The notes under the pieces were generated by a model that saw only the letters and a list, made by a program, of their open reading frames with translations, was not told the origin of the DNA and ran no database searches. This document shows, in pieces, positions 7,096-53,680 of a stretch of 64,000 nt of DNA. Each line of letters starts with the position of its first letter. Position 1 is the first letter of the stretch. A program made the position numbers and the translations under genes. The stretch comes from an uncultured Gammaproteobacteria bacterium. Its GTDB lineage: Bacteria; Patescibacteriota; Microgenomatia; UBA10105; UBA927. The DNA is taken from the NCBI GenBank assembly GCA_964553825.1, contig CAZKLT010000004.1, positions 3,137 to 67,136 on the forward strand, given 5' to 3'.

Positions 7096-7705
7096 GGATT
7101 TGATCGATTATAGCACGCAATTTTTGGGGAGCGGAAAGGATAATATCCGGGCAAAGCGCGCGCATGCGGGAGGCAGACAACAGCCCCCAGGATACGCCGA
7201 TGCTTGTGATGGAAAGCGCGCGGGCCGCGCCTACATCAGCGTCGGTATCTCCGACAACCGCAAGCGGCAGGGGAATAATCGTTGCAATAACCGGCGCTTT
7301 TTGGTCTCGCGGAGTCAGAACACGATGCTCGGGAAACCAGCGATCAAGACCAAGCGCCGCAAGCTGCGCCAGGAGTCTCATGCGCTGTTTGCGCAGTGTT
7401 ACCAGATAGGGCACATATTGACGAGAGATTTCCTCAATGGCGTGCACCATGCCGTCAAACGGTGTGTCAAGCGCAAGCAGTGCGGTGTCTTCAATGCGTG
7501 CACGGAAATGCGTAAGGAAGGCGTCTGATGCGGTATGCGGGATCGACCGCCCGTTTCGCCGTTTGGTCCAATACGATGTTCGGGACAGAGGGACATGTCC
7601 CATATCCGCAAGAATGGAACTATACAGTGTCCAGAAGCGACGATGAACATCCAAGATCGTTCCGTCCAGGTCAAATACTACTGCGGGGTGCGCATTTTCA
7701 GCCAT
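7061..7705 (-). CDS. HAD-superfamily hydrolase (phosphatase)
   Basis: N-terminal VVFDLDGTILD (DxDGT motif I), later VVGDTDADVGAARA (motif IV-like). Confidence 0.85.
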   Translation of the reverse strand: MAENAHPAVVFDLDGTILDVHRRFWTLYSSILADMGHVPLSRTSYWTKRRNGRSIPHTASDAFLTHFRARIEDTALLALDTPFDGMVHAIEEISRQYVPYLVTLRKQRMRLLAQLAALGLDRWFPEHRVLTPRDQKAPVIATIIPLPLAVVGDTDADVGAARALSITSIGVSWGLLSASRMRALCPDIILSAPQKLRAIIDQIHEQPYHRNSGI

Positions 7706-8544
7706 AGGATTTCTTCTTCTATGTTATCAGGGAAGATGTATCGTGGAACAAAGGAAAGTTCGCGGCGCGCGCGGGCGATTGAATACACGAGATCATGCCG
7801 CTTTATCCGGCTGGGGATGGTGTAAATCGGCAATAAAGGATTGATGCGGTCACGGATGATCCGGGCAGCTGCTCCCACGGTGATTGCATGTCCGGTGCCG
7901 ATACAAAACAGACCGTTCGCCCGTTTGTCTATGGCCAGAAGAATCGCCCGTGCCGCGTCCTCCTTATGCAGATAGTCGCGTCTATTTTCGGGATTTTTCA
8001 CTTCTATGGTTTCGCCGGCAACGGCACGCGAAATGAAATTGGGAATGGCACGCGAGATCATATCTCCCGGACCATACATGGGTGAAAATCTGAGGACTGC
8101 AGTAGGGATACCCACGGATGTTCCGGCTTTGAGTATCAGCTGTTCTGATTTGAGCTTGCTTTTGCCGTACCATGTCGTCGGATGAACCGGGGTACGCTCG
8201 GTAATTTTTTTCGTGCGGGGGATTCGTCCGTATACCTCAATCGTACTTGCATAGAGCAGACCTTTGGCGTGTTGGCCGAATACCGCGATGAGATTCTGTG
8301 TCATGCGCATATTGGCGCCGAAGAGCATTCCCGTATCTTCGACTGCCTTCCGGGGAACAACTGCGGCAAGATGTACGATATAGTCGATTGCCGGGAATGC
8401 GTTTCGTGCGCGCTTCAGGCTCGCTCGATTTAACAGATCAAACCGCGGCCGGCGAAGTTCCCATATGTGATACCCGTTCTTTTCCAAGAGGCGGGTAACC
8501 GAAGGTCCCAAAAATCCCGTGCTTCCGGTGAGAAGGATATTCAT
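7678..8544 (-). CDS. NAD-dependent sugar epimerase/dehydratase (SDR family)
   Basis: MNILLTGSTGFLGPSV Rossmann GxxGxxG; YGKSK catalytic YxxxK. Confidence 0.85.
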   Translation of the reverse strand: MNILLTGSTGFLGPSVTRLLEKNGYHIWELRRPRFDLLNRASLKRARNAFPAIDYIVHLAAVVPRKAVEDTGMLFGANMRMTQNLIAVFGQHAKGLLYASTIEVYGRIPRTKKITERTPVHPTTWYGKSKLKSEQLILKAGTSVGIPTAVLRFSPMYGPGDMISRAIPNFISRAVAGETIEVKNPENRRDYLHKEDAARAILLAIDKRANGLFCIGTGHAITVGAAARIIRDRINPLLPIYTIPSRIKRHDLVYSIARARRELSFVPRYIFPDNIEEEILWLKMRTPQ

Positions 8545-8558
8545 AACTGTTATATCGA

Positions 8559-8580
8559 TTTCTTTGATCGCGCAAAGAAA
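8559..8580. promoter_or_regulatory. Palindrome TTTCTTTG-ATCGCG-CAAAGAAA 14 nt upstream of epimerase start codon (copy 1 of recurring motif)
   Basis: Inverted repeat read from sequence; followed by GAAAGAAAGCGCGCC as in the other copies. Confidence 0.45.
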
Positions 8581-8642
8581 CGGATGAAAGAAAGCGCGCC
8601 CACAGCGAAGATGTCCCTATGGTTCATCGTTTTGGAACACCT

Positions 8643-9689
8643 TCAAGCGGGAATTTTCGCTTGTTTTATTTGTTTGCTGGTTGTCAAAATCGGAAGAAAA
8701 TCCATACCCCGAATCCATACGAGGCCCGGTGGAAGGGGATTAACGCGTCGTTTCGGAAGGTGAGGCATTTCTCCGAAAGCCAGCTTGGTGTAGATAAGCG
8801 GCATATTCAGGCCTGCGTTGGTGAAAAATTGGTGCGTCGTAAAGAAGCGGCCGATATTTATTTCCGTGGGATTGGGGACTCCCCGGGCGTCGTAGGTGAG
8901 GTCTGCGCCATACAAACCATGGGGAGCCGGATCAAGGGCAAGAATCGCTTTCCTGGCTACCTTGTCCACGGTCGCGTCGCGAATAGTGACGCCCGCGCCC
9001 GTTACTCCCGTGATTCCTGAGGGGGCTATTTTGCCCATCTCCCAATACAGCCGTTCGCGTCCCTGAGCAACGATTAATTGTCCTGAATGCCAAATAGACA
9101 TCCAGGTAACGCTTCTTTTTGAGAGGTAGGATGCCGCCGTAAAATGTCCCCAGCCCTCATGAAAGTCAATCCATGCCTTTGCCTGTTTGACGCTGGTGGC
9201 AGCAAGGGAGCCACGACCGGCGGCGCCCTGAATATCGCGTAGCCAGAGTGGAGTACCGAGTGCTTCAAACGCGCGAGTAAGATCAGCGGGCCGCCTGAGA
9301 AGCAGGGTTTGGGGAACGGTAAGACCTGCTTTTTTCCATGCGAGGTAGGATTGAAATTTATCCTGACAGGTGGAAACGACACCATCTGCGGGAAGAAAAA
9401 CCCGAGCGGCCAAATGGTTCCGCATACGACTTATCCATGCGACCTCCTCGTCGTTCTGTGCATGGATAAATGTTATCCGTTCCTTCTTGATAATCTCGTT
9501 GATGACGGCTAAAAATCGTTTATCCGTCGCTTTGGGTACCAGGTATCGTGTATCCGTTTCGGCGCGAGCCAGGTAGTAGGGGTTGGCGTCGGTGCCGACG
9601 AGGTAGAACGGTTCGCCCGCTTCCCGCAGGGATCGAACGAAGTTGGTAGAAGGAGCGCCGCCAGCTCCGGCGATAAGTATGCGTTTCAT
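8643..9689 (-). CDS. ATP-grasp domain enzyme (sugar/amino-acid ligase candidate)
   Basis: MKRILIAGAGGAPSTNFVRSL... Rossmann-like N-domain then ATP-grasp-like central region; true start taken as internal Met because the upstream extension would read through the conserved hairpin. Confidence 0.7.
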   Translation of the reverse strand: MKRILIAGAGGAPSTNFVRSLREAGEPFYLVGTDANPYYLARAETDTRYLVPKATDKRFLAVINEIIKKERITFIHAQNDEEVAWISRMRNHLAARVFLPADGVVSTCQDKFQSYLAWKKAGLTVPQTLLLRRPADLTRAFEALGTPLWLRDIQGAAGRGSLAATSVKQAKAWIDFHEGWGHFTAASYLSKRSVTWMSIWHSGQLIVAQGRERLYWEMGKIAPSGITGVTGAGVTIRDATVDKVARKAILALDPAPHGLYGADLTYDARGVPNPTEINIGRFFTTHQFFTNAGLNMPLIYTKLAFGEMPHLPKRRVNPLPPGLVWIRGMDFLPILTTSKQIKQAKIPA

Positions 9690-9698
9690 AGTATTTTT

Positions 9699-9726
9699 GC
9701 CATTTCTTTGCTCACCCAAAGAAATG
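9699..9726. promoter_or_regulatory. Palindrome CATTTCTTT-GCTCACCC-AAAGAAATG ~10 nt upstream of ATP-grasp start (copy 2)
   Basis: Perfect 9-bp inverted repeat; followed by AAAGAAAGGGTGCCGCGG. Confidence 0.5.
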
Positions 9727-9865
9727 TGCAAAAGAAAGGGTGCCGCGGTGAAGGTTTTTTTGTTTTTCTAGCCTCGCGCAGTGCGGCTGACCCTCGGTTG
9801 AGGATCAACCGTGTCCGCACGCTTGCCGCTCGGCAAGCAAAACTACAAAAACACTTCAATGCGGT
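9727..9865. repeat. Intergenic element copy A (~65-70% identical to 11052..11176), contains GACCCTC-GGTT-GAGGATC and TTGCCG-AGC-GGCAA palindromes
   Basis: Manual alignment of the two intergenic regions shows shared blocks (GAAAG.G.GGCC..GTGAA...GATCCTCGGcTGAGGATC..CCGT.TCC.CACGCT...GCAAG). Confidence 0.5.
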
Positions 9866-11010
9866 TATCTATTCAGTTTGCTCACTAGGGTTAATATGTT
9901 TTCGATAACATATTCCTGTTCTTCTTTCGTTAAGCCGTGATACATGGGGATAGTGAGCGTTTCTGCCGATGCGCGCTGGGTATGGGGGAGGGAAAGCCGC
10001 GGATATAATTTTCTGTACGGAGTTTCCAGGTGAGCTGACGGTATTCCCCGACGCGTGGCAATACCTGCATCAAGCAGTTTCTGCATGAGCCGGTCACGGA
10101 GCGGCGCCCCTGCCCGCAAACGGATCATATAGGATTGGTAGGTGTGGAAATATCCTTCAGGGACGAAGGGCGGGACGATGACGCTATGTCCGGAGAATGC
10201 CTCAGTATACCGTTTGGCGGTTTTCTGCCGTGATGCCAGAATCGTCTGGAGTTTCGTAAATTGAGATAGGCCAAGTGCCGCATGGATATCACTCATGCGT
10301 AGGTTGTAGCCGATGAGGGGATACGATTCAAAAAGAACCTTCTTGCTGGCGTCACGCTTCTTGACGTCGATGGATGCGCCATGTGCCCGCAACAGTGAAA
10401 CCGTGTGGGCAAGCGATCTGTTCGCCGTAACAAATACGCCCCCTTCAGCGGTTGTAATTGCTTTCCGTGGATGAAAAGAAAAAGCCCCCCACGTGCCCCA
10501 GTTGCCGACATGTTTGCCATTGATCGTTGACGCCAATGCGCAGGCACAATCTTCAAATAGCTGTATTTTTGCTGCCCGGGCTATCCGGAAAAGCTCCGGA
10601 AGATTTGCGGCCAGTCCTACCTGATGGACGGCAAGGATGCCACGGGTTTTTTTCGTGATTTTCCGTGCGACATCCTTCGGATCCAGATTGTAGGTGTCAG
10701 GATCTATATCCACAAAAACGGGCGTAGCGCCTGCGTGGACAATACAGTTGGCGCTGGCGATAAAAGAAAATGACGGGACGAGTACTTCATCACCCGGGCC
10801 AATGCCGCTTGCCAGCAGCCCAAGATGCATCGCAGTCGTCGCGCTTGATGTGGCCACCGCATAAGGACTTTTGACATAGGCGCCGATTCGTTTTTCAAAT
10901 GCTTCAACCTTCGTCCCTTGCAACACCCATCCGGAACGGACAACAGAGGCTACTGCCTGTTCATCTTCTTTGGTAAAAAACGGTTTGGCAACAGGAATAA
11001 GTTTTTTCAT
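9865..11010 (-). CDS. DegT/DnrJ/EryC1/StrS-family PLP-dependent sugar aminotransferase
   Basis: MKKLIPVAKPFF..EDEQAV..VVRSGW..QG..V..FE; SxxK-type lysine region; family-typical length; start at internal Met MKKLIP. Confidence 0.9.
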   Translation of the reverse strand: MKKLIPVAKPFFTKEDEQAVASVVRSGWVLQGTKVEAFEKRIGAYVKSPYAVATSSATTAMHLGLLASGIGPGDEVLVPSFSFIASANCIVHAGATPVFVDIDPDTYNLDPKDVARKITKKTRGILAVHQVGLAANLPELFRIARAAKIQLFEDCACALASTINGKHVGNWGTWGAFSFHPRKAITTAEGGVFVTANRSLAHTVSLLRAHGASIDVKKRDASKKVLFESYPLIGYNLRMSDIHAALGLSQFTKLQTILASRQKTAKRYTEAFSGHSVIVPPFVPEGYFHTYQSYMIRLRAGAPLRDRLMQKLLDAGIATRRGIPSAHLETPYRKLYPRLSLPHTQRASAETLTIPMYHGLTKEEQEYVIENILTLVSKLNR

Positions 11011-11019
11011 ATATATCTT

Positions 11020-11051
11020 GATCATTTCTTTGTTCGCTCAAAGAAATGATC
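11020..11051. promoter_or_regulatory. Palindrome GATCATTTCTTT-GTTCGCTC-AAAGAAATGATC 10 nt upstream of aminotransferase start (copy 3, 12-bp perfect stem)
   Basis: Inverted repeat read from sequence; followed by GAAAGAAAGAGCGGCC. Confidence 0.5.
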
Positions 11052-11176
11052 GAAAGAAAGAGCGGCCAGTGAAAATATTCTTATGATTCTATCTTCGCCT
11101 GATGCGGTGGATCCTCGGCTGAGGATCGGCCGTTTCCACACGCTCAGGACTCAGCAAGAATCAACACAGAATATTT
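11052..11176. repeat. Intergenic element copy B (homologous to 9727..9865), contains perfect palindrome GATCCTC-GGCT-GAGGATC at 11110..11127
   Basis: See copy A; direct sequence comparison. Confidence 0.5.
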
Positions 11177-11641
11177 TCAACGGCGTAATTTTACCTGCCT
11201 CACTTTTGTATCATGTTTTTCGAATTTACGAGTTGACCCGACGATCTTGCCTGGGACACCCATCACGAGTGAGTAGGGAGGGATGGTTGCATGTTCGGGT
11301 ATCACCGCCCCGGCGCCCACGACTGAGTGATGCCCAATCGTTACTCCCATAAGCACTACGGCGTTGGCCCCTATGAAGCAGTAGTCACCGATCGTCACAT
11401 TTCCGGTATCAATTTGATTATAGCGTCGTTCACTGATACAACGGTGTACGGTTGAGTGGCTGATAATCTGGGCGCCGGTGGCAATATTGCATCCGCGGCC
11501 GATCGTAACACGGGCGTGCTTGGCGTCGATCAGCGTGAACGCGCCGATCCATGTTTCTTCCCCAATAACGGGGCTTCCCAGAATCCATGCGTGGGGATTA
11601 TAGGGGTTGGGAGGTATGCCTTCGGTGGGCGTGCGTTTCAT
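11177..11641 (-). CDS. Hexapeptide-repeat (LbH) sugar N-acetyltransferase
   Basis: Repeated [LIV]G..x.I hexapeptides (IGDYCFIGANAVVLMGVTIGHHSVVGAGAVI); PglD/WbbJ-like. Confidence 0.85.
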   Translation of the reverse strand: MKRTPTEGIPPNPYNPHAWILGSPVIGEETWIGAFTLIDAKHARVTIGRGCNIATGAQIISHSTVHRCISERRYNQIDTGNVTIGDYCFIGANAVVLMGVTIGHHSVVGAGAVIPEHATIPPYSLVMGVPGKIVGSTRKFEKHDTKVRQVKLRR

Positions 11642-37344: not shown

Positions 37345-38070
37345 CTAGAAGTGTATATCGACATCCGGAAGTATGGCGCGGATGCGTGCCTTTTCTGTCT
37401 CAGAAATAAGATTTCCTCCCACATACAGTCGTTTTAGTGTACCGTTAAGTTTTGTCATGGAGTCAGGCAGCGTCCTGAGCCTATTGGACCGGGCATCCAG
37501 GACGGTCAGCGCCGTAAGATTGCCGATCGAATCGGGAAGCGTGGTGAGGCGATTGTCATAGATGTGCAGCGTGGTGAGGCGCGTAAGCGCTCCGATGGAA
37601 TCCGGAAGGGTCTCAAGCGCGTTTCCGCCCAGCTTCAGTGTCTCCAGCCGTGTAAGATTGCCAATCGTATCCGGAAGGTGCATTATGCGCTGGTCCTGTA
37701 TTTGCAGTCGGGTGAGCGAGGTAAGCGACCCGAGAGAAGCAGGAACGACGCGTACGTTTCCCCGGACAACTCCATAGCGGGCGAGCTGTTTCATGGGCAG
37801 AAGGGTGTCGATGTGAAGCGCGTTGATGTTGCATACCGGCGAATAGTCCAGCGTCGTTACCCGGGGCAATTTTTCCCAGACAGCGCGCAGTGACCTGCCG
37901 GCATCCCGGTCATACGTGCCCAGCGTCTCACAGTATTCCACCGGATCGTACGCCAGTTGTCTTGCAACGGGTTGAACCAGGAGTGTCGCGCCGGATACCC
38001 ATCCGGCAAAAAGGGACACACCCCACAGAAGAAGGGAAAAAGCCGGTGTGTGTCGTGCCTGCATGCGCAT
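37345..38070 (-). CDS. Leucine-rich repeat protein, N-terminal membrane anchor
   Basis: LPDTIGNLTRLETLKLGGNALETLPDSIGALTRLTTLHIYDNRLTTLPDSIGNLTALTVLDARSNRLRTLPDS. Confidence 0.85.
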   Translation of the reverse strand: MRMQARHTPAFSLLLWGVSLFAGWVSGATLLVQPVARQLAYDPVEYCETLGTYDRDAGRSLRAVWEKLPRVTTLDYSPVCNINALHIDTLLPMKQLARYGVVRGNVRVVPASLGSLTSLTRLQIQDQRIMHLPDTIGNLTRLETLKLGGNALETLPDSIGALTRLTTLHIYDNRLTTLPDSIGNLTALTVLDARSNRLRTLPDSMTKLNGTLKRLYVGGNLISETEKARIRAILPDVDIHF

Positions 38071-41072: not shown

Positions 41073-42161
41073 TTAGTTCTTCCAGACGTTGTGGACCAGG
41101 ATGCCCTCCGTGAAGTAATTGTGCTGTTCTCCCGGAAGGCTGAGGTTGTAGACGGGCGGATTTTCGTCTACTGCTGTAATGCTGCCCACGAGTAGCTGGT
41201 TTCCCTGGGGGTCAAGGAGCATATCGTTCACGCGAATAGCGTCGGCTCTGAGCCACGCCTTCCTGTTTTCCACCCAGATATTGTGACCTTTCGTGACACG
41301 CAGTGTCCCGTTGATCACCAGATACCCTGCTTCCTGCGACTCCGGATCTTCCGAGGGACTTGTATGAACCAGAAGCGCGGCTACAGGATTGGGTACCAGA
41401 GTTTCTGTCGTTAGGTCGTAGGAGAGTACAACGTCGCCCGGTCTGATATCCTGTATTTCCTTCAGGGTGCCGTCTGCCATAAGTACCTTGGTGCCAGCCA
41501 GGAAACATCCGCCATAGCTGCCATATGATGATTGCCCGTACCCATAATAGCTTGCTTGTCCATAGCCATAGCTGTAAGAATAGTAGCTGCTTTGGCTATA
41601 GGCATAGTAGTTGGATTGGCTATAGGCATAGTAGTTTGCCTGGCCGTAATTATAGTAGGTGGATTCGGAGTAGGAATAGCAATTATTGGTGTACTGCCCA
41701 TTACCGTCGTCGCAATCTGCACTGAGGGACTTCATGAGGCCAATTCTTCTTCTTCCGGGTGCAGACGCATCATAGTATTGGGCAGTGGGACTAAACCACC
41801 CGTCTGCATCCGCGTCATCAATCCAAAGACCGTTGCCTACCAGAAGCTGGCCGCTGCCGATTGCAATACCACCCGCGCCGTTGATGATAAATTGTCCGGC
41901 AATGATTTTCTGGCTTGACGAGAGGGTCAGATTGTAATCTCCCAGAGTGATGGTAGCGGAATTTGTCGTGGATGATTCGCTGTTTTGCGGGTTGTCTACC
42001 CCGTCAATCGTATATGAGTATGTACAGGAAGCCGTGAGGACGACGTTGCCGTATGTTGTCGCAGGACGGGCACAATCAGCTAACACCGTGTGTTTCGGCG
42101 CGAGAAGGAGCAAGAATACGAGTGCGCAAAGTAATGCAAGGGGTGTGAAAAGTCTTTTCAT
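41073..42161 (-). CDS. Secreted protein with C-terminal Hint (bacterial intein-like, BIL) domain and Tyr/Ser/Gly-rich linker
   Basis: Signal peptide; ...YYAYSQSNYYAYSQSSYYSYSYGYG... then CFLAGTKVLMADG (Hint block A), TKGHNIW (block B TxxH), VYNLSLPGEQHNYFTEGILVHN (blocks F/G) ending 4 aa before stop with Val at +1. Confidence 0.85.
   Translation of the reverse strand: MKRLFTPLALLCALVFLLLLAPKHTVLADCARPATTYGNVVLTASCTYSYTIDGVDNPQNSESSTTNSATITLGDYNLTLSSSQKIIAGQFIINGAGGIAIGSGQLLVGNGLWIDDADADGWFSPTAQYYDASAPGRRRIGLMKSLSADCDDGNGQYTNNCYSYSESTYYNYGQANYYAYSQSNYYAYSQSSYYSYSYGYGQASYYGYGQSSYGSYGGCFLAGTKVLMADGTLKEIQDIRPGDVVLSYDLTTETLVPNPVAALLVHTSPSEDPESQEAGYLVINGTLRVTKGHNIWVENRKAWLRADAIRVNDMLLDPQGNQLLVGSITAVDENPPVYNLSLPGEQHNYFTEGILVHNVWKN
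41560..41660. repeat. Tandem ~24-bp DNA repeats (TTGGCTATAGGCATAGTAGTT..) encoding the NYYAYSQS repeats of the Hint protein
   Basis: Direct repeats read from sequence inside CDS 41073..42161. Confidence 0.6.
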
Positions 42162-42865: not shown

Positions 42866-44047
42866 ATGAAAAAGGTGATATTTATCGGTGTTCTCGTGTT
42901 CCTTTTTGTTGCGTGGGCTTTCCGCGCCAAACCCCAGGTCAAATCGTACCCTGAAGTGTCCTATCTTGCAGCGCAGACTATGGACTTCGGACAGTTAAGT
43001 ACGTTTTTCACCAGGCTTGCGCAAACCAAGGGAGCCGCCTATGCGTTTGAGGTTCTCGGACAGGCGTCACTCCCGCCAAATACGGATATGCACCTGCTTG
43101 GTCATGTCGTGGGAGATGAATTATATAAAGAAAAAGGAATTGACGGGATGCGTATTTGTACGCAGGATTTTCGGAATGCCTGCTCTCATTCCATTGTTGT
43201 GGGATATTTTCTTGCCCATGGAGAAGAGGGATTGGGGGCGATAGCCGAAGCATGCAGAACTGCTCCGGGAGGAAGTGGCGCGTATACCATGTGTTTCCAC
43301 GGCCTTGGTCACGGTATTCTGGCAGCTGTTGACTACGATCTTCCCCGGGCTGTTGCCCTGTGCCAGAAAACGGGAACACTTCCGTACGGATACCGTGAGG
43401 CTTCCGAGTGTTCCAGCGGGGCCGTCATGGAGATTATATCCGGAGGGTTTCATAATAAGACACTTTGGGAAAAGGCCTCAAAACGCTATCTGTCCTTGAC
43501 CCAGCCGCTTCTTCCCTGTGTCGCTGACTATATGCCGGCAGTCGCGCGGCCGTCCTGTTTTGAATATCTCACTGGACACCTGGTTACGGCTGCGGGCGGC
43601 TCACTGGATACGGGTGTGCCGACGGATGAGGTCATTGTGCGCGCTATGCAAATGTGCACTCAGGTGGTTGACGCAGCTCCTCGGGATGCGTGTTACAAAG
43701 GATTTGGAAAAGAATTTATCGTCCTTGTGCACAATCGCGATACGCGGACATTGACGGATATGAACGATGAAGAAATGAACGAAACATACCGCCTGTGTGG
43801 CCTTGCTCGCGATACGCGCGGGGAACAGATGTGCCTGACGCATGCGCTTGATTCTCTCTACTGGGGAGGCGAAAACGATATCCGCGGGGCAGTACGGTTC
43901 TGTGCGCTGATGTCATCTCCGGTTATGAAGGAGACTTGTTTTGCGCACTTAACGGGTGCTATACAATTCTTTGCGAAGACCCCGAGGGAGAAAAACGAAG
44001 ACTGTGGAGCGCTTCCCGAAGCGTACAGAAGCAGGTGTTATGAATAA
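42866..44047 (+). CDS. Cys/His-rich paralog 3 (subtype D)
   Basis: DMHLLGHVVGDELY..CTQDFRNACSHSIVVG..CFHGLGHGI..CSSGAVME. Confidence 0.7.
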   Translation: MKKVIFIGVLVFLFVAWAFRAKPQVKSYPEVSYLAAQTMDFGQLSTFFTRLAQTKGAAYAFEVLGQASLPPNTDMHLLGHVVGDELYKEKGIDGMRICTQDFRNACSHSIVVGYFLAHGEEGLGAIAEACRTAPGGSGAYTMCFHGLGHGILAAVDYDLPRAVALCQKTGTLPYGYREASECSSGAVMEIISGGFHNKTLWEKASKRYLSLTQPLLPCVADYMPAVARPSCFEYLTGHLVTAAGGSLDTGVPTDEVIVRAMQMCTQVVDAAPRDACYKGFGKEFIVLVHNRDTRTLTDMNDEEMNETYRLCGLARDTRGEQMCLTHALDSLYWGGENDIRGAVRFCALMSSPVMKETCFAHLTGAIQFFAKTPREKNEDCGALPEAYRSRCYE

Positions 44048-45524
44048 CAGAAAGGCGATAACAGGAGGGACGATTGCCGTTTTTGCCGCATGCGTGTGGG
44101 TGTTTTGGGCAAAGGCGTTCGTCGTGGGAGACGGCAGGAGTATAACGTTCCGTCAGGACGGTTACCGGCCCACGCGATTAACCGTGCGCGTCGGGGATTC
44201 CGTGACGTTCAGAAACAATTCGGGCAAGCCATTCTGGCCAGCCAGCAATAACCACCCAATCCATGAACTGTATCCCGAATTCGATCCGCGTAAGCCGATT
44301 GCTCCCGGTGAGTCATGGCAGTTTACGTTTACCCAAGAAGGAAAATGGCGTTTTCATGATCATATATATCCGGAATTTCGCGGCACGATCATGGTGCTCC
44401 CTCCGGGGAAAACCACCCTTCCGCCGCTTGACTGCAGTGCGTCTGCTGATGCCCAAACAAAAGGTCGCTGCTGGGAGGAAACCCTCAGTGATGCCCTGGA
44501 AACACGCGGCATTGCGGGCGCGTTCAAGGAATTTTCCCGATTGTATAAAACGGACACCGACTTCATACGCAGCGGGTGTCATGTGCACGCCCATAGGATC
44601 GGGGATGAATTTTTCCAGGCATATGCATCCAAGCTGCGGAAGCTGGAGGGCATAGAATTGCCCGTGGAAACTATGAGCTGTGGATACGGGTTTTTCCACG
44701 GATTGTTTGAACATTTTTTCCGGAAGTATCCGGATGTAGAATTGGCGCGGGCGATTTGTGACGACTTGGATTCGCGCTACAGCAAGACAATTCCGCTTAT
44801 CCGTATCAACTGTTTCCATGGCGCCGGTCACGGACTGATTGCGGATCCTCCCGATCCTTCATCCTGGGGAAACCCAAAGTCGCTTGTGGCTGGGCCGCTT
44901 GCGCTGTGTGCGCAAATTTCCCATATACCCGATGAATCGCATGCCTGCATTGACGGGATATTCAATGTCGTATCCAGTTGGATGGGGGACGCCAAGTACG
45001 GTATGAGCATAGACGCGGCAGATCCGTTCTGGCTTTGTGAATCAGTCCCCGACGTGGCAAAGGAATCCTGTTATTATGAACAAATTATGGTAATGAGCGA
45101 GATGGAGAATAGGGATCTGCTTGCAATTACGCGGAAATACGTGGCACCGATTGCGGATCCGCAGATCGCAAGGCTTGTTATGTTCTCGCTTGCGGCATCG
45201 TTCATGCAAAAAGACGTCGCACTTGCCGATCACGCGCATATGCTCGTGAATTGTAGAAATGTGCCCGCCGGTCTGAAAGAACGTTGTTTAGAAGGCGTGT
45301 TAAACGGTTTTAAGGGACATGGCGAACCGGGAAATGAATACAACAAAGCGCTGGCATTCTGTGCGCTTCCCCAGATGACGCGGGAGGAACAGCAGGTCTG
45401 TTATCCGTATCTGGTAAGGATTCTTTGGGAGTTATATCCGGCCCAAAAAGTGTTGTCTCTTTGTTCAATGATTCCCAGTGAATACAGAAATGCCTGCGAA
45501 ACACGGATGATTCAGCAAAACTAA
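44040..45524 (+). CDS. Cys/His-rich paralog 4 with N-terminal cupredoxin-like domain (subtype C)
   Basis: TM, then ITFRQDGYRPTRLTVRVGDSVTFRNNSGKPFWPASNNHPIH...WQFTFTQEGKWRFHDHIYPEFRGTIMVL, then CHVHAHRIGDEFF..CGYGFFHGLFE..CFHGAGHG; 8-nt overlap with paralog 3. Confidence 0.7.
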   Translation: MNNRKAITGGTIAVFAACVWVFWAKAFVVGDGRSITFRQDGYRPTRLTVRVGDSVTFRNNSGKPFWPASNNHPIHELYPEFDPRKPIAPGESWQFTFTQEGKWRFHDHIYPEFRGTIMVLPPGKTTLPPLDCSASADAQTKGRCWEETLSDALETRGIAGAFKEFSRLYKTDTDFIRSGCHVHAHRIGDEFFQAYASKLRKLEGIELPVETMSCGYGFFHGLFEHFFRKYPDVELARAICDDLDSRYSKTIPLIRINCFHGAGHGLIADPPDPSSWGNPKSLVAGPLALCAQISHIPDESHACIDGIFNVVSSWMGDAKYGMSIDAADPFWLCESVPDVAKESCYYEQIMVMSEMENRDLLAITRKYVAPIADPQIARLVMFSLAASFMQKDVALADHAHMLVNCRNVPAGLKERCLEGVLNGFKGHGEPGNEYNKALAFCALPQMTREEQQVCYPYLVRILWELYPAQKVLSLCSMIPSEYRNACETRMIQQN

Positions 45525-45526
45525 CG

Positions 45527-46696
45527 ATGAAAACTGTCATATCGCACCGTTTCCCTTTCGTCATAGGTTTTGTTCTCGTGTTGGCTATCGGCGCAGGTCT
45601 CTTTGCGGGGAGTGGACAATTTGGCCGGCCTACCTGTGATCAGAAAGATGCGGAAGCACTGAAAAAATGTTGGGAAGCGGTGGTGTCAGTGTCTATGAAG
45701 AAGGGAGATATCGCAGGCGCATTTGATTCGCTGGCTGACCTCTATGGTGCCGCACCTAATCTGGGAGAAACGTGTCATAGTCTTACTCATGAGATAGGCC
45801 GAACGGCGTATCGGTTGTTTGCGCGCGATGTTGACTTTGGCATTACGCCGAAAACCGCATACTGTTCCTATGGCTTTTACCATGGGTTTATGGAAGAGCT
45901 GGTTTTGGCAAAAGGCGACATGAAGCTTGCGCGGGAATTTTGCAGTTATGTGGATCAGCAGCTTGTAAAGGTGAGTCCGGACGTGACGCTTCAGTGTTAT
46001 CACGGTATCGGGCACGGAACCGTCAATAATCATGATCCAAGAACATGGGGAGATCCGCAGAAGCTTATCGACCCGGCCATTGCGCTGTGTGAGGAAGTGG
46101 CGACGAATGACAGCGAAGTAAACCGATGTGCAACCGGGGTCTATAACGGACTTGCCGTTTTTTACAGCAACGGCGAATACAAATTAACGCTTGACCGAAA
46201 TGATCCGGTCGGCATTTGCAGAAGGCAGCCAGAGAAGTACCAGGATGCCTGTTATGTCAGTTTCAATACGCTTCTTTTGGGGTTGACGGGATATGATTTG
46301 GCAAAGGCTGCGACGTACCTTGCCCATATTCCCCAGGATGTGATTGCACAGCATGCCATGATTAACCTGGCATCTCCCGTCGGCACCAAACATATCACGG
46401 AAACAGACCATGCTCCAACGATTTCTGTCTGCCGGTCGCTGCCCGCGCGTATTCGGCTTGCGTGCATTCAGGGATATGCGTTTGGTTTTTTGGAACACGG
46501 TGAACCGACGAAAGAATACATAAAACCTCTTCAATTTTGCGAATCAAATCAGCTTACTACAGAAGAGCAAAATGCATGCTTTGAGTACATTTTAGGGTAT
46601 CTTCCCAGATGGTATGCCAAAGAGAAAGTTTTGATGATTTGTTCGGATCTTAATCCGAAATGGAAGGAATATTGTGAGAAGCAAACTATTCAATAG
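45527..46696 (+). CDS. Cys/His-rich paralog 5 (subtype B)
   Basis: KCWEAV..CHSLTHEIGRTAY..CSYGFYHGFMEEL..CYHGIGHG..CATGVYNGL. Confidence 0.7.
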   Translation: MKTVISHRFPFVIGFVLVLAIGAGLFAGSGQFGRPTCDQKDAEALKKCWEAVVSVSMKKGDIAGAFDSLADLYGAAPNLGETCHSLTHEIGRTAYRLFARDVDFGITPKTAYCSYGFYHGFMEELVLAKGDMKLAREFCSYVDQQLVKVSPDVTLQCYHGIGHGTVNNHDPRTWGDPQKLIDPAIALCEEVATNDSEVNRCATGVYNGLAVFYSNGEYKLTLDRNDPVGICRRQPEKYQDACYVSFNTLLLGLTGYDLAKAATYLAHIPQDVIAQHAMINLASPVGTKHITETDHAPTISVCRSLPARIRLACIQGYAFGFLEHGEPTKEYIKPLQFCESNQLTTEEQNACFEYILGYLPRWYAKEKVLMICSDLNPKWKEYCEKQTIQ

Positions 46697-48101
46697 AGCG
46701 CATGCATTTTTTCTGTTTACGGCATCAGGAATTTTGGGCCTCATTGCTTTTGTTGCTGTCGGCACCTGGTTTTCCAATACCGTTATTACCTTGACGGATG
46801 ACGGATTTTCTCCGAGGGTGGTAGTAGTGAGGAAAGGGGCGACAGTTCGCTTCAGTTCAAATCGTGGGCGATATTTCTGGCCCGCATCCGATCCGCACCC
46901 CATCCATACGAAGGAGCTGAGTTTTGATCCGAAGCGTGCCATTGCCCCGCAGGGTCAGTGGGAGTTTGTTCCCATGTCAGCAGGAATTTGGACATACCAT
47001 GATCACACCGCTCCGCAGTTTCGCGGGACGGTTATTGTACTTGCGGGCGACAGCAGCGTTTTGTCGTATGTGTGGGGACGTATTGGTCAGTGGGCTCGCA
47101 TCGTTTTGCTGAACACGCAGCGGCAAAGCGATGCATATTTCCGCGACTGCGGCCCTCTGGGTAAGGACTGTTGGGACAGAGCGTTTCTCGAAGTGGTCAA
47201 CCGCGAGGGGTCGCGGGAGGCATTAAGAATGGTGGATTATCTGCGGCGGACGTATCCTGAGTTTGCCAATTATTGCCACCAGTATGCCGATTTTATTGGT
47301 GACATTTCTTATTGGAATATACCTGCGGCGCGCAGAGTTCTTGATTTTGACATCTCGCTTGCCGGGCAGTGCTCAAGCGGCTACATGCACGGATATATGG
47401 GAGAGTTTATGTCACACGGTATTTTCGCGCAGGGTGTGGCATTTTGCGATCAGATTAGAGCCAAATACCCGGGAACAGAAGCGGCATTGGAGTGTTACCG
47501 GGGGATCGGCAATGGGCTTACCTTTCAAAACGGTTTTCTCTATTGGAATGATGAAACAGCGATCGTCGATCACGCTCTTGCCGGTTGCAGCGGGTTGGCA
47601 GAAGAAGATGCCTGTCGAAGTGGGGTATTTGTGGGGATAGATCACATGCATTTTGGCGTACACGGTTTTGAGTTACGACGTGATCCGAATGATCCGTTTG
47701 CGCTTTGCCGTGGCCGGGATACCGTTACCGAGGCTGCCTGTTATGATGCGACGATCTCATCCTTTTTTGCGGCGGTTGGTTATGATTTGTCCGAAGCGGC
47801 GAAGCATCTGCGCATACTACCCCTTATTCATGCCAAGCGCGTGGTGGAGCAAGTCGTGAAAATTCCTTACGAGCTGGAAGATTTTGAACGGAAAGGCGGA
47901 AATATGACCATTATTGCCTGGTGCCGATCAATCGGCGGTGCCTTACATCCTGCATGTTTTCGGGGATTTGTCCTGAAGTTATACACGATCGATGTTGAGT
48001 ATAATGGACAAAGTAGTCTTGCCCGCGAATTCTGTGGGAATTCATTTCTGAATCAGTCAGAGAAAGACATGTGTCAGCAGATATTCAATGAAGCCATATA
48101 A
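46674..48101 (+). CDS. Cys/His-rich paralog 6 with cupredoxin-like N-domain (subtype C); GTG start
   Basis: ITLTDDGFSPRVVVVRKGATVRFSSNRGRYFWPASDPHPIH...WEFVPMSAGIWTYHDHTAPQFRGTVIVL; 23-nt overlap with paralog 5. Confidence 0.65.
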   Translation: MRSKLFNRAHAFFLFTASGILGLIAFVAVGTWFSNTVITLTDDGFSPRVVVVRKGATVRFSSNRGRYFWPASDPHPIHTKELSFDPKRAIAPQGQWEFVPMSAGIWTYHDHTAPQFRGTVIVLAGDSSVLSYVWGRIGQWARIVLLNTQRQSDAYFRDCGPLGKDCWDRAFLEVVNREGSREALRMVDYLRRTYPEFANYCHQYADFIGDISYWNIPAARRVLDFDISLAGQCSSGYMHGYMGEFMSHGIFAQGVAFCDQIRAKYPGTEAALECYRGIGNGLTFQNGFLYWNDETAIVDHALAGCSGLAEEDACRSGVFVGIDHMHFGVHGFELRRDPNDPFALCRGRDTVTEAACYDATISSFFAAVGYDLSEAAKHLRILPLIHAKRVVEQVVKIPYELEDFERKGGNMTIIAWCRSIGGALHPACFRGFVLKLYTIDVEYNGQSSLAREFCGNSFLNQSEKDMCQQIFNEAI

Positions 48102-49269
48102 ACTCATTATTCCAATTTCATTATTTTTTCTGGTTACCGCTTCCTATGTGGGCCTGTATCGCGGAGCGGGATCGACGCCCCAACATGCAGCGCAGCGTGT
48201 CATCAGTCGGTGTCAGAACGAAGCCCACCGACCTGCCTGTTATGAGCGGGAGATTCCGAAACTCATGAACACGCTCTCCATGGAAGATGCCTTTGCCGTC
48301 ACCCGTCTGGTGCAGGACGCTGATCCAGCGTTTGCATACTGTCATGTGGTAGCGCATAAATTAACCGCGATAGAAACAAAAAAGAATCCTCTGAGGTGGA
48401 AAGACGTCATGCTCAGGTGTCCGCAATCGGCGTGTAATTACGGCTGCCTCCACGGATCGCTTATCGAACGGTTCCGCGGAGAAACACTCAGCGATACGCA
48501 GATCGCTCAAACCGAACTCAGCATAAAAGATCTCTGTGAGCCGCGCCCGGGATTTGCTCCAACGGAAATTGAGCGCACGATGTGTTATCACGGCATAGGA
48601 CATCTTGCGATGTATATGACCGGAGGAGATCCTGCGCGCAGTATTCCGGTATGTGAGCGGCTTGCGAAGCGGGACGATGGCCGGGAGTATATAAAAACGT
48701 GTGTTGAAGGCGTATTTATGACTGTTTTTCAGAGTATCGATCCTGAAGATCTCGCCCTCGTTATCGACATTAGGCCCAACAAGCAGGATGTTGGCGCTTT
48801 CTGTGAGCAGTACGGTGTATACGTGGCCAACTGCCGACGTGAATCTTACGCGATGTTCGCAGACGAAACCCAAACCGCCGAAGGACTCCGCTCTTTCTGT
48901 TCCTATGCCCGCGGAGAAGAGGAAAAGCGGGATTGTTATTGGGCGGTGATTAACGCCAAAACGACGATATTCTTTGAACAGTCCGATTCGGTTTCCCGGA
49001 TTGGAGCATACTGTCGATCGTTTCCGGCAGACACTCGCAGCTGGTGCTGGCGGGGAGCGGCTATGCGGTTAGTACAAATAGATCCGTTGAGGAATGTCCG
49101 TGCGGCTGATTCCGTCTGCGCTATGGGGTCGACACAAACAGAAATCCAATCCTGTTATCAGGATTTGCTTTATTATGCTGAATTCTCGTTTGAAAAAAAC
49201 AGCCAACCATATAAAGAGTATTGCGGCGGCCTTGCCGAATCCTGGAGACAGCAATGCGTCAGTCAATAA
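48088..49269 (+). CDS. Cys/His-rich paralog 7 (subtype A)
   Basis: RCQNEAHRPACYEREIPKLM..YCHVVAHKL..CNYGCLHGS..CYHGIGHLAMYMTGGD. Confidence 0.7.
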   Translation: MKPYKLIIPISLFFLVTASYVGLYRGAGSTPQHAAQRVISRCQNEAHRPACYEREIPKLMNTLSMEDAFAVTRLVQDADPAFAYCHVVAHKLTAIETKKNPLRWKDVMLRCPQSACNYGCLHGSLIERFRGETLSDTQIAQTELSIKDLCEPRPGFAPTEIERTMCYHGIGHLAMYMTGGDPARSIPVCERLAKRDDGREYIKTCVEGVFMTVFQSIDPEDLALVIDIRPNKQDVGAFCEQYGVYVANCRRESYAMFADETQTAEGLRSFCSYARGEEEKRDCYWAVINAKTTIFFEQSDSVSRIGAYCRSFPADTRSWCWRGAAMRLVQIDPLRNVRAADSVCAMGSTQTEIQSCYQDLLYYAEFSFEKNSQPYKEYCGGLAESWRQQCVSQ

Positions 49270-50450
49270 AAAGGAAACCATTGATCGTGGGAACACTTAT
49301 AGCAGCGTGCGTGGGCTTGCTTGCCGTTGGCGTCTGGTATGTGTCGCGGGGAGCGAGCGTATCGTCAAAAATGGTGGCAGCCTTGGCCTCAAGCTGCGCT
49401 CAGTCAACGGAAACTGCCAAAACGCAGTGTTGGGAAGATCTCGTGCGTAAGGTTATCCGGGAGCATGGCGTACGGGCGGCGTTTGACGTTATATCCGCTC
49501 TGCATGATGCAGATGCGCAATTTGCACAAACCTGTCACGCCATGGTGCATATTGTGGGACAACAGGCATACGGAGAATTTCATACGACCGGACGGGTTGA
49601 TTTGTCAGCGAAGGCAGCGTCCTGCGCATTTGGGTTCTATCATGGATTTATGGAGATGTTGGTAGCGCGCAAAGGGACGATTGCCCAGGCGCAGCAATTT
49701 TGTGATTATGTCGATCGGATACTCGGAAATGAGACACCGAATGCGATATATAGCTGCACTCACGGGATTGGACACGGATCTACCGATATTCATAATCCTC
49801 AGTATTATGGGAATGAGCGGGCGGTCATAGCGCCTGCGATTGCAAATTGTGAGGCATTTGCCCGGGACGATCATGAGCTGACGCTCTGCGCGACGGGCAT
49901 ATTTGATTCGATTGCGCTTGCATACTACAACAACGGAGAAAATGGGTTTGTGATGAAAAAAGAGGACCCGCTCTGGCTCTGCCACGAGCAACCCTTAAAG
50001 TATAAGGAGGCGTGCTATCGTGATATGATGCCAGCCGTGATTTGGATGGGGGAGCACGACCTGACCCTTGCCGCCCCGATCGTTTTCACGCACGCAGAGG
50101 ACGACTACAAGGCGTTTGCCCTTGAAGCCCTTGCGGAAAACAGCGTTCGGTTCATTGTGAACAAAAAACCAACCACCGTATATCTGCCATATTGTCGCTC
50201 CCTTACGGGAAGTCTCTCTGATGCCTGTGTACGCGGATTGGCGGCAGGAGCGATGCAATTTGGCAGACCTGATCGTGAATATGAAGACGCGTTGGTATTC
50301 TGTAAAGACGACCTGCTCACTGCCGGAGAGAAGGATATCTGCATGAAGCGGATTTTGGATTATGCACGCGGGCGGTATTCGCAAAAGCGGGTTTCTGATA
50401 TCTGCAGGGAAACAGAAGAAATCTGGCGACCGTACTGCACACAACTATGA
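49254..50450 (+). CDS. Cys/His-rich paralog 8 (subtype B)
   Basis: QCWEDLV..CHAMVHIVGQQAY..CAFGFYHGFMEML..CTHGIGHG..CATGIFDSI; start at ATG 49254 (16-nt overlap). Confidence 0.7.
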   Translation: MRQSIKRKPLIVGTLIAACVGLLAVGVWYVSRGASVSSKMVAALASSCAQSTETAKTQCWEDLVRKVIREHGVRAAFDVISALHDADAQFAQTCHAMVHIVGQQAYGEFHTTGRVDLSAKAASCAFGFYHGFMEMLVARKGTIAQAQQFCDYVDRILGNETPNAIYSCTHGIGHGSTDIHNPQYYGNERAVIAPAIANCEAFARDDHELTLCATGIFDSIALAYYNNGENGFVMKKEDPLWLCHEQPLKYKEACYRDMMPAVIWMGEHDLTLAAPIVFTHAEDDYKAFALEALAENSVRFIVNKKPTTVYLPYCRSLTGSLSDACVRGLAAGAMQFGRPDREYEDALVFCKDDLLTAGEKDICMKRILDYARGRYSQKRVSDICRETEEIWRPYCTQL

Positions 50451-51676
50451 AACTGAGCGGTGGGAAAAAGCTATTGTTGGCGGGACTGTTGGTGCTTCTT
50501 GTGGCGGAAATTGCATATCTTATCGTCCCAACGCTCAATCGTTCGAAAGACGATCTTCTGACGCTTGCGTCCCAGTCGATTCTGCGTGCATGCGAAAACA
50601 ACCAGCACCGGCCGACCTGCTATGACCGGGAGATTCCCAAGCTTATGAACCGATTTACCCTTGAGGATGTTTTTGCGGTTACCAAGCGTATACAGTCTCA
50701 GGATCAGTCCTATGCGTATTGCCACGTGTTGGGACACGCAGTCTCTGCCGCCGAAACGAAAAAAGACCCGTCTCTTTGGCGTGAAGTCATAACACGATGT
50801 CCCAGCGGCGTGTGCTCAAACGGGTGTGTCCATGGGGCCTTTCAGGAGCGATTCCGCACCGACGTTCTTCCGGATCATGAAATTGAGGTGATAAAGCCCG
50901 ACTTGCTCACGGTGTGTGAGCCACGGGATTCATGGAAACCCACAAGTCTTGAGCAGGCAACGTGCTACCACGCACTTGGGCACCTGCTCATGTATATTAC
51001 GGGTGCGGATCTGACGAAATCCGTGGGACTGTGCGATCAGCTGGCCGGGGTAAAAGACGGGAGCCAGTTTGATTTCCGTCATATCTGCTACGATGGCGCG
51101 TTTATGCAGATATTTCAGCCGCTTGAGCCGGAAGACCGGGCGCTGGTTGCCGGAAAACAGCCGGCCAAAGCAGATGTGTCGGCCTATTGCAGCGTTTGGG
51201 AGGGGCAGCGGCAGGTTTCATGCATCAGTGAGTCGTGGCCGCTTTTCCTGAACGAACTACAGGATCCTTCTTATCTCTCGACGTTTTGCGGGCAGCTTCC
51301 CTCCGATTTCTCACCGCGGTGTTATACCGGTATGTTTTATATACTCGTCGTACAGTTTCGGTTTGACCTCTCGCGGATGAAAGTCTATTGCGACGGGCTA
51401 CCCCAGAATTTGAGCGGGGCATGCTACGCCAATACGGCATCCCGTCTTATTGAGACTGACTGGGGAAATGTGTATAAGGCAGCCGCATGGTGCAAGGACG
51501 CCGGGAGTGTCACCGCGCAGCAGGACTGCTATCAGGAGCTTGCGTTTTATGCGTCATATAATTTCCATATGGGGTCGCCGGAATTCTATTCCCTGTGTGA
51601 GGCCCTGCCTGAGCCCTGGAAAGACGCCTGTCTGAAAGGTTCGACGGAAGGAAATCTGAAGCCAGTGAATCAATAG
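50447..51676 (+). CDS. Cys/His-rich paralog 9 (subtype A)
   Basis: ATGA overlap; RACENNQHRPTCYDREIPKLM..YCHVLGHAV..CSNGCVHGAF..CYHALGHLLMYITGAD; five C-x9-11-C[YL] units in C-half. Confidence 0.7.
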   Translation: MKLSGGKKLLLAGLLVLLVAEIAYLIVPTLNRSKDDLLTLASQSILRACENNQHRPTCYDREIPKLMNRFTLEDVFAVTKRIQSQDQSYAYCHVLGHAVSAAETKKDPSLWREVITRCPSGVCSNGCVHGAFQERFRTDVLPDHEIEVIKPDLLTVCEPRDSWKPTSLEQATCYHALGHLLMYITGADLTKSVGLCDQLAGVKDGSQFDFRHICYDGAFMQIFQPLEPEDRALVAGKQPAKADVSAYCSVWEGQRQVSCISESWPLFLNELQDPSYLSTFCGQLPSDFSPRCYTGMFYILVVQFRFDLSRMKVYCDGLPQNLSGACYANTASRLIETDWGNVYKAAAWCKDAGSVTAQQDCYQELAFYASYNFHMGSPEFYSLCEALPEPWKDACLKGSTEGNLKPVNQ

Positions 51677-51677
51677 T

Positions 51678-53677: not shown

Positions 53678-53680
53678 GAT

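Follow-up and report, generated by a model that had tools for sequence, protein, structure and literature searches.

A candidate triple-helix pseudoknot in the spacers of a sugar-modification operon and in intergenic DNA of many bacterial phyla

Three consecutive spacers of a sugar-modification operon, in the 64,000-nucleotide stretch of DNA analysed in this work (contig CAZKLT010000004.1 of assembly GCA_964553825.1, positions 3,137 to 67,136; hereafter the window), contained copies of a structured element lying just upstream of the genes for a DegT aminotransferase, a PylC-like ATP-grasp ligase and an epimerase. From its sequence we lean towards regarding this element as a very stable, self-contained intercistronic RNA module, folded as a triplex pseudoknot and inserted between the genes, which would protect or insulate the cistrons. 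The element was visible as the palindrome TTTCTTTG-N6-CAAAGAAA, exact matches to which were found at 8559-8580, 9703-9724 and 11025-11046 (three matches vs. 0.00 expected from 100 shuffles of the window); six of the eight TTTCTTTG words of the window fell within these palindromes. A palindrome search with 3 mismatches gave one extra, chance-like match, and no further copies of the motif, exact or degenerate, were present in the window. The spacers were named IG3 (hexapeptide transferase/DegT), IG2 (DegT/ATP-grasp) and IG1 (ATP-grasp/epimerase).

Covariation and the pseudoknot fold

The complete motif was written as X - T1 (CUUUCUUUG) - Y - W (UUUCUUUG) - X' - nn - R (CAAAGAAA) - Y', and its pairing was analysed in two alignments: A2, with 118 distinct genome copies including the three of the window, and A3, with 74 metagenome copies fetched using a pattern that specified neither X nor T1. 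In A2, the four bases 5' of T1 (X) were complementary to the first four bases of the hairpin loop (X'), and the hairpin W:R was prolonged by Y:Y' with many compensating changes. Ninety-six percent of the A2 cells were paired (45-56% when the partners were slid by 1-3 columns), and the covariation score of 0.40 (0.05-0.09 after sliding) was reached by none of 500 shuffles. Both sides changed at all four pairs of stem 1 (S1) and at six pairs of stem 2 (S2); the innermost X:X' pair, for example, was GC in 53 copies, CG in 51, UA in 5 and AU in 3. Alignment A3 behaved similarly: 93.6% of its cells were paired, with a covariation of 0.36 vs. at most 0.08. The distinct complementary X/X' combinations numbered 20 in A2 and 14 in A3, and the Y/Y' combinations 26 and 21 respectively, and the signal therefore did not originate from a single lineage. 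The window copies all fitted this scheme (X/X' being CGCU/AGCG in IG3, CACC/GGUG in IG2 and CGCG/CGCG in IG1).

G.U pairs exceeded A.C pairs about 3:1 in both alignments (59 vs. 17 in A2, 36 vs. 13 in A3), and one A2 column alone contained 40 U.G pairs. This excess identifies the pyrimidine-rich strand as the one that folds, which in the window is the mRNA strand. Since X' is located within the hairpin loop, the arrangement is that of an H-type pseudoknot: the 3' strand of stem 1 lies inside the loop of stem 2, and both stems covaried in two independent alignments. We are fairly confident in predicting a module of this type, in which S1 would be formed by X:X', S2 by W:R plus 5-6 Y:Y' pairs, and loop 1 (L1) by T1.

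Third strand and proposed triple helix

In H-type pseudoknots such as those of the telomerase and SAM-II structures, L1 leaves the helix junction and follows the 3' strand of stem 2 in parallel along the major groove, as in a pyrimidine-motif triplex. In copies with the symmetric core AAAGAAA, it was impossible to distinguish a T1 matched in parallel to R from a direct repeat of W. Some loci, however, had an asymmetric core (R = CAAAGAAAA, W = UUUUCUUUG), and these were used as a test: metagenomes were scanned for that hairpin alone, with T1 unspecified (120 loci), and the upstream sequence was then examined. Among 55 copies with R = AAAGAAAA and with X:X' and Y:Y' pairing, T1 was UUUCUUUU (UUU-C-UUUU) in 50, and never UUUUCUUU (UUUU-C-UUU, the direct repeat of W). 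Where R had five A's, T1 was UUUCUUUUU, with five U's on the same side (3 of 3 copies). The lengths of the A-run of R and of the 3' U-run of T1 agreed in 180 of 185 copies: (3,3) in 117, (4,4) in 60, (5,5) in 3, with 5 off the diagonal. T1 thus mirrored W and was matched in parallel to R, a pattern not expected of an antiparallel Watson-Crick partner or of a direct repeat bound by a protein.

At the sequence level, then, a pyrimidine L1 was matched parallel to the purine strand of stem 2. The three-way covariation of T1, W and R argues, with moderate to fair confidence, for a T1 placed in the major groove of S2 as a U.A-U / C+.G-C triplex of seven triples, eight or nine in the variants. According to Pleij's pseudoknot rule, one nucleotide bridges about six base pairs of A-form major groove; a Y:Y' helix fixed at 5-6 bp would allow the third strand to connect, at its 3' end, with the 5' end of S2.

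Organization of the three operon copies

The three spacers, aligned in mRNA sense, had a common plan: a hairpin starting with UUGAA, a short GC segment, CUUUCUUUY, 5-6 bases, the palindrome, a 9-nt AU-rich spacer and the AUG. The upstream hairpin measured about 110 nt in IG2 and IG3 and about 40 nt in IG1, and its stem had compensating differences from copy to copy. All three regions were predicted to be far more stable than shuffled sequences: -68.8 kcal/mol for 11007-11182 (IG3, z = -7.5), -76.5 kcal/mol for 9686-9862 (IG2, z = -6.4), and z = -3.1 for IG1. X, Y and the hairpin sequence had diverged among the three copies while the fold was kept, which suggests selection on structure.

In IG3 (all features on the minus strand), the long hairpin, predicted from the fold and from outer-stem compensating changes in the alignment with the IG2 hairpin, occupies 11070..11180 (UUGAAAAUAUUCU at its start, AGAAUAUUUUCA at its end), and the TGA stop codon of the hexapeptide transferase (11179-11177) lies within its first bases. 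It is followed by X (CGCU, 11061..11064), the 5' strand of S1, whose partner AGCG at 11035-11038 was assigned from the sequence and the family covariation, and by T1 (CUUUCUUUC, 11052..11060), the proposed Hoogsteen third strand and loop L1, assigned from the sequence and the T1-W mirror relation of the family. S2 and its loop correspond to the palindrome (11020..11051): a G and Y (GAUCA), W (UUUCUUUG, 11039-11046), the loop AGCGAA comprising X' (11035-11038) plus 2 nt, R (CAAAGAAA, 11025-11032) and Y' (UGAUC, 11020-11024). The segment 11008..11019 contains the 9-nt AU-rich spacer AAGAUAUAU and the DegT start codon, without a Shine-Dalgarno sequence.

In IG2 (minus strand), the long hairpin predicted from fold and alignment extends over 9748..9859 (UUGAAGUGUUUUUGUAG ... 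CUAGAAAAACAAAAAAACCUUCAC), and the putative pseudoknot over 9698..9742: X (CACC, 9739-9742), T1 (CUUUCUUUU, 9730-9738), Y (GCACA, 9725-9729), W (9717-9724), the loop GGUGAG with X' (GGUG, 9713-9716), R (9703-9710) and Y' (9698-9702), upstream of the ATP-grasp ATG at 9689. In IG1 (minus strand), the short hairpin, predicted from the fold and the alignment, is located at 8607..8646 (UUGAAGGUGUUCC ... GGGACAUCUUC) and includes the TGA stop codon of the ATP-grasp gene (8645-8643); the putative pseudoknot (8554..8598) consists of X (CGCG, 8595-8598), T1 (CUUUCUUUC, 8586-8594), Y (AUCCG, 8581-8585), W (8573-8580), the loop CGCGAU with X' (CGCG, 8569-8572), R (8559-8566) and Y' (UCGAU, 8554-8558), upstream of the epimerase ATG at 8544.

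An earlier, sequence-only reading of this DNA had described the palindrome with stems of 8, 9 and 12 bp, directly 5' of the epimerase, ATP-grasp and DegT starts. The palindrome and its position were confirmed (the ATGs at 8544, 9689 and 11010, all on the minus strand, begin 14, 13 and 14 nt past CAAAGAAA respectively), and its perfect stems were corrected to 8, 10 and 13 bp. The plus-strand block GAAAGAAAG(N)GCGSCC of that reading was real, being the reverse complement of the third CTTTCTTTY block and the short GC segment; the long N-terminal extensions of the open reading frames (ORFs; MIKIYMKK.., TTG at 9731) were, as it had stated, artefacts of read-through of the element. RNA folding of the mRNA 5' regions, which it had named as a check, gave the z values above. 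Its placing of a folded single strand, read in the mRNA direction, directly ahead of the start codons was supported. It had recognised the hairpin, but missed the GAAAGAAAG third strand and the pairing of the GC block with the hairpin loop, and had overlooked the hairpin of 45-125 nt upstream of each copy.

The host operon is transcribed from the minus strand. Its first four genes encode a GFO/IDH/MocA oxidoreductase, a hexapeptide transferase, a DegT aminotransferase and an epimerase/dehydratase; the next four encode the second hexapeptide transferase (11177-11641), DegT (9865-11010), the PylC-like ATP-grasp ligase (8643-9689) and the epimerase (7678-8544), and the operon ends with a HAD hydrolase followed by a family-2 glycosyltransferase.

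Insertion into an operon of overlapping genes

Syntenic contigs from relatives were found via homologues of the ATP-grasp protein of the window (percentages below are amino-acid identities to this protein). In L128 (72%) and L134-136 (74%), the genes for the hexapeptide transferase, DegT, ATP-grasp and epimerase all overlapped, without spacers. In L129 (82%), the DegT/ATP-grasp gap was 10 nt long and free of the element, and the 60-nt ATP-grasp/epimerase gap contained a decayed copy (CUUUUCUUUU..UUUCUGAG..CAAAGAAA, then 14 nt and the ATG); the IG1 insertion is older than the split from L129. From the overlap in the relatives, it follows that the ancestral genes were overlapping and translationally coupled, and that the three insertions were gained in the lineage of the window. 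We are confident in regarding the window copies as insertions at junctions where the genes of relatives overlap. They illustrate how an operon of tightly coupled sugar-modification genes can take up three inserts with every reading frame and start codon intact.

Comparison of C-termini and junction sequences showed that the hexapeptide transferase ORF continues for 14 codons past the stop point of five relatives (11181..11222, minus strand), and a remnant ATGA of the ancestral overlapping stop/start was located inside this extension, which is probably the left part of the IG3 insertion. Apart from this possible ATGA remnant, the window copies had no clear terminal inverted repeats or target duplications. 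About 20 nt located 5' of UUGAA in IG3 were similar to the last part of the ATP-grasp gene ahead of IG1 (AAAAUU.C.GC..UUGAA), a likeness which hints that copies spread within the operon by copying their flanks too. All window copies and the L129 remnant were in mRNA sense.

In two other relatives, L127 and L130, a different structured repeat occupied some of the same junctions, and the junctions of this operon seem to be hot spots for structured inserts. That repeat (UUUUGAAGACAACUGCGC...GCGCACUUAGC...GAGAACCAUCAGAUGAGCGGGUCU...; L127 7800-8000 and 9090-9273, L130 588-808) likewise begins with UUGAAG.

Distribution and genomic setting

The motif was found in more than 240 loci from many phyla. 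A scan of one genome per species with the pattern CTTTCTTT-N6-TTTCTTTG-N6-CAAAGAAA gave at least 120 loci, mostly from Beta- and Gammaproteobacteria (Caballeronia, Paraburkholderia, Ralstonia, Undibacterium, Variovorax, Neisseria, Xanthomonas and Lysobacter among the genera). The motif was also present in Desulfurivibrio, Chitinophaga, one Bacteroidales and one Selenomonadaceae metagenome-assembled genome (MAG), two MAGs of the Candidate Phyla Radiation (CPR)/Patescibacteria, and four viral contigs. With so few viral contigs and no match in annotated phages, a phage link was rejected. Among plasmid-collection replicons, several Paraburkholderia records had at least 39-40 motif places each and Caballeronia and Burkholderia replicons 6-23 each, and the search with a Ralstonia query gave 2-13 places per record among the matches listed, one of the copies being at 757165-757377 of the Ralstonia pseudosolanacearum GMI1000 megaplasmid. 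Almost none of the plasmid-collection matches listed overlapped an annotated feature, and annotation look-ups around the motif in the plasmid records returned no features. In Burkholderiaceae, palindromic units of roughly 640 bp, whose arms of about 190-210 nt face outward, carried the motif close to each end (L030 808-1456 and 6808-7450; L002 6110-6790); no clear target duplication was observed for these units.

The motif was intergenic in 35 of 37 lower-GC loci. Outside the window it was usually not beside a start codon, and the next gene was more often on the other strand. Clustering of all ORFs within 3 kb of 120 loci revealed no recurrent protein family; as candidate partners, a transposase, TnpB/IscB, a reverse transcriptase and a toxin were considered and rejected on this basis.

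Forty-seven of 255 copies had a second conserved motif, UGUYUGAG-C(GNA)G-CGAGUU, which formed the apex of a long hairpin 70-100 nt 5' of the pseudoknot (e.g. L029, L124, L122, L015) and was never found in the antisense control; this suggests that the pseudoknot is the 3' module of a larger RNA of about 150-250 nt. No convincing homology was detected between this hairpin and the long hairpins of the window. In many loci the pseudoknot was usually followed by a short GC hairpin and AAA (e.g. CGCCC-NNNN-GGGCG-AAA; L105, L034 and L212 among others), which in some Oxalobacteraceae copies could form a second small pseudoknot (AGCCGCCGGGCUACCCCCGGC), and a G-rich run (GGGG) was often located 5' of X; both the downstream GC hairpin and the GGGG run were absent from the window copies.

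Rfam searches, at the gathering score (the window and 18 loci) and at a permissive E <= 10 (the region and 5 loci), revealed no family matching the motif; the sole match was the candidate small RNA Bp1_684, just downstream of one Caballeronia copy (L002 6713-6820). No description of the motif was found in the searchable literature, although absence there is not proof of novelty. The available text of a 2026 review on RNA triple helices includes riboswitches (SAM-II, preQ1-II) and a group II intron among its bacterial examples.

Proposed function and alternative explanations

The position of the copies, the stability of their folds and the loss of gene overlap are the features observed that correspond to a stabiliser or processing element. 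Such an element, separating cistrons, had been among the suggestions of the sequence-only reading; with the same genes overlapping spacer-free in relatives, it is still the best functional guess, and we are only moderately confident of a stabiliser/insulator role in the window. The module would block exonucleases, or shield the 5' end created when the neighbouring long hairpin is cut; it would also prevent base pairing between the inserted RNA and the start region. With the AU-rich spacer of 9 nt and the AUG left open, initiation could take place without a Shine-Dalgarno sequence once translational coupling was lost. The window genes essentially lacked Shine-Dalgarno sequences, the distance from the stem end to the AUG was 9 nt in all three copies, and the start regions were AU-rich and somewhat more open than those of 30 control genes (0.55-0.73 vs. 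0.48 +/- 0.11). A TAnAAT-like box was located about 5-15 nt from many start codons across the window (e.g. 7095, 20212, 20238 and the 23118-side genes); together with the absence of Shine-Dalgarno sequences, these boxes suggest leaderless or very short-leader mRNAs.

Elsewhere the motif was mostly away from start codons, and its general role is therefore something other than controlling the translation of individual genes. All the contexts in which it was found (free-standing RNAs, repeat ends and operon spacers) are compatible with a portable structural module of great stability.

Several points weigh against the inserted, protective triplex pseudoknot proposed here. The gain in start-site accessibility is modest, and as the motif mostly lies away from starts elsewhere, the role proposed for the window may be no more than incidental. 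Core diversity is under-sampled, as the search patterns fixed the core, and many copies come from related genomes; a sliding 8-mer census of core variants yielded redundant entries and nothing further. The triplex is read from a sequence pattern, and the asymmetric-core test involved essentially one type of change, extension of the A-run at one end; in the symmetric form, Watson-Crick pairing of T1 with R is possible and was predicted by ViennaRNA for IG1. Finally, the module may fold as single-stranded DNA instead of RNA.

The main rival to the stabiliser/insulator is a selfish interspersed repeat of the MITE or REP type, merely tolerated where it lands, with a pseudoknot that would help the repeat itself to spread or persist, either through an RNA intermediate or in the form of folded single-stranded DNA; we regard it as rather unlikely. 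The copy numbers in unannotated intergenic DNA of Paraburkholderia, Caballeronia, Burkholderia and, among the matches listed, Ralstonia are those of such a repeat, as is the location near both ends of the Burkholderiaceae palindromes. The element was variably present or absent among the relatives of the operon, a different repeat occupied the same junctions in L127 and L130, and identical X and Y variants occurred in distant phyla (e.g. Bacteroidales and Desulfurivibrio). However, no transposase or other protein was recurrent nearby, and the window copies lacked clear terminal inverted repeats or target duplications. The window copies differed in X, Y and hairpin and yet kept the fold, pointing to selection on structure after insertion, and all of them, like the L129 remnant, were in mRNA sense.

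The sequence-only reading had also considered an operator in the mRNA. On this view, the pseudoknot would be the target of a protein, ligand or small RNA that puts translation of the epimerase, ATP-grasp and DegT genes under common control. The constant spacing of 9 nt from stem to AUG in the three copies and the L129 remnant, the resemblance of the fold to the SAM-II and preQ1-II riboswitch architecture, and the invariant core are in line with this idea. It is nevertheless improbable: no consistent gene association was found among about 280 copies, most of which were far from a start codon or faced a gene on the opposite strand; the triplex aside, few conserved unpaired nucleotides are available for a ligand pocket; no Rfam riboswitch matched; and relatives run the same pathway spacer-free. 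The expectation that the motif would mark a regulon tied to start codons failed likewise, with three copies only in the window and copies elsewhere usually away from start codons.

At the DNA level, the element could be a palindromic operator to which a dimeric regulator binds, supplemented by a third half-site, as three 8-bp blocks at a fixed spacing might suggest, or an H-DNA mirror repeat (T1-spacer-W), T1 and W together being a homopyrimidine mirror repeat of the H-DNA-capable kind. Both are highly improbable. X:X' and Y:Y' complementarity is needless for protein binding or H-DNA and yet covaried strongly, with a G.U excess on one strand; the R block is needless for H-DNA; and the motif crosses phyla with no regulator gene or other protein recurrent nearby. 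The operator for a common regulator proposed by the sequence-only reading was thus not supported.

An internal promoter or intrinsic terminator between the cistrons is also highly improbable. In its favour are AT-rich TATAAC / TATATA-like hexamers between stem and ATG, boxes of a kind found beside the ATG of many window genes. Against it, a consensus scan of the minus strand within the elements found neither a sigma-70 promoter (-35/-10, 16-18 bp spacing) nor a hairpin-plus-U-tract terminator, the sequence after the stem being AU-rich without a U tract, and the covariation pointed to a strand that folds. Inspected by eye, the T-rich blocks did not have the spacings of sigma-54 or Bacteroidetes-type promoters, and both readings were rejected.

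A wider interpretation is put forward tentatively. The motif may be an uncatalogued, cross-phylum class of bacterial RNA module whose pseudoknot, with 7-9 triples, would be longer than every natural RNA triplex solved so far, MALAT1 excepted. Free-standing small RNAs and interspersed repeats would be its carriers, and it would act as a portable protector or insulator that, on landing inside an operon (three times in the window), uncouples once-overlapping genes without ending their expression. To our knowledge, long RNA triple helices come mainly from eukaryotic and viral RNAs (MALAT1, PAN, transposon ENEs, telomerase), and we know of bacterial RNA triplexes only as short ligand-binding cores. 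If the interpretation is true, an abundant and sequence-simple bacterial triplex pseudoknot would be an easily testable model for the protection and organisation of RNA by triplexes, could explain an unannotated repeat family in Ralstonia, Burkholderia-group and other genomes, and would give engineered operons a compact part with which to stabilise or insulate their cistrons.

Other features of the window

Four tandem 69-nt repeats (37508-37747) were located within an ORF at 37345-38070 (minus strand). About ten same-strand ORFs of about 330-520 amino acids occupied 42866-57908, several of them with common repeated DNA segments (families D1, D2 and D8) and paralogue-like; a Pfam scan of three of these ORFs gave no match. 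A protein with a Hint / pretoxin-HINT domain was encoded at 41073-42161 (minus strand), and two neighbouring genes (62167-62228 and 62723-62784) had prepilin-type N-termini (GFTLIELLVV).

Comparison with known systems

ToxI-like type III antitoxin RNAs, with their triplex core, are like the fold proposed here small bacterial RNA pseudoknots with base triples. ToxI, however, is a tandem 36-nt array beside a toxin gene, whereas the present copies were single, without a tandem array or an adjacent toxin, and were located 1.1-1.3 kb apart with biosynthetic genes between them.

Like the REP/BIME, ERIC, Correia and MITE (e.g. Chunjie) repeats, the motif was intergenic, multi-copy in some genomes and strongly self-folding; like them, it is inserted into operons that stay intact and may act as an mRNA stabiliser or processing site. 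Many intergenic copies per genome were found in Burkholderiaceae, compared with 3 copies in the 64 kb of the window. The motif differed from REP in having no GTAG head, and no RAYT or transposase partner was found; its conserved part was a pseudoknot with a triplex signature and not a simple palindrome, with the same core across phyla.

With the ENE and MALAT1 triplexes, the proposed fold shares an A-rich strand clamped by two U-rich strands, a single C+.G-C amid U.A-U triples, and a role as RNA stabiliser, which for the present motif is a proposal. The ENE form also occurs in the RNAs of transposable elements, according to the available text of PMC13541005. In an ENE, a single hairpin supplies both U-rich strands through its internal loop, and the A tract belongs to a 3' tail or to poly(A); in the present motif, the third strand lies 5' of the hairpin, the A strand is the hairpin's own 3' arm and the whole is a pseudoknot, a different architecture from the ENE, found in bacteria and internal to transcripts.

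The closest resemblance is to the pseudoknots of telomerase RNA (human, K. lactis), SAM-II/SAM-V and preQ1-II, which have the same two-stem H-type topology, with a U-rich loop that follows the purine strand of stem 2 in parallel, within the major groove, and forms U.A-U triples and, in K. lactis, C+.G-C as well. The sequence signature of the present motif matches this arrangement. The present motif differed from the SAM-II, SAM-V and preQ1-II riboswitches in that it had no link to methionine or queuosine genes, its neighbours being unrelated and variable, and matched no Rfam model at the gathering score or at E <= 10; it also differed from the telomerase and riboswitch pseudoknots in being multi-copy and interspersed, and in the extra 5-6 bp Y:Y' helix below the triplex. 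In the available text of PMC7102945, solved natural triplexes have six or fewer triples, compared with the 7-9 contiguous triples proposed here.

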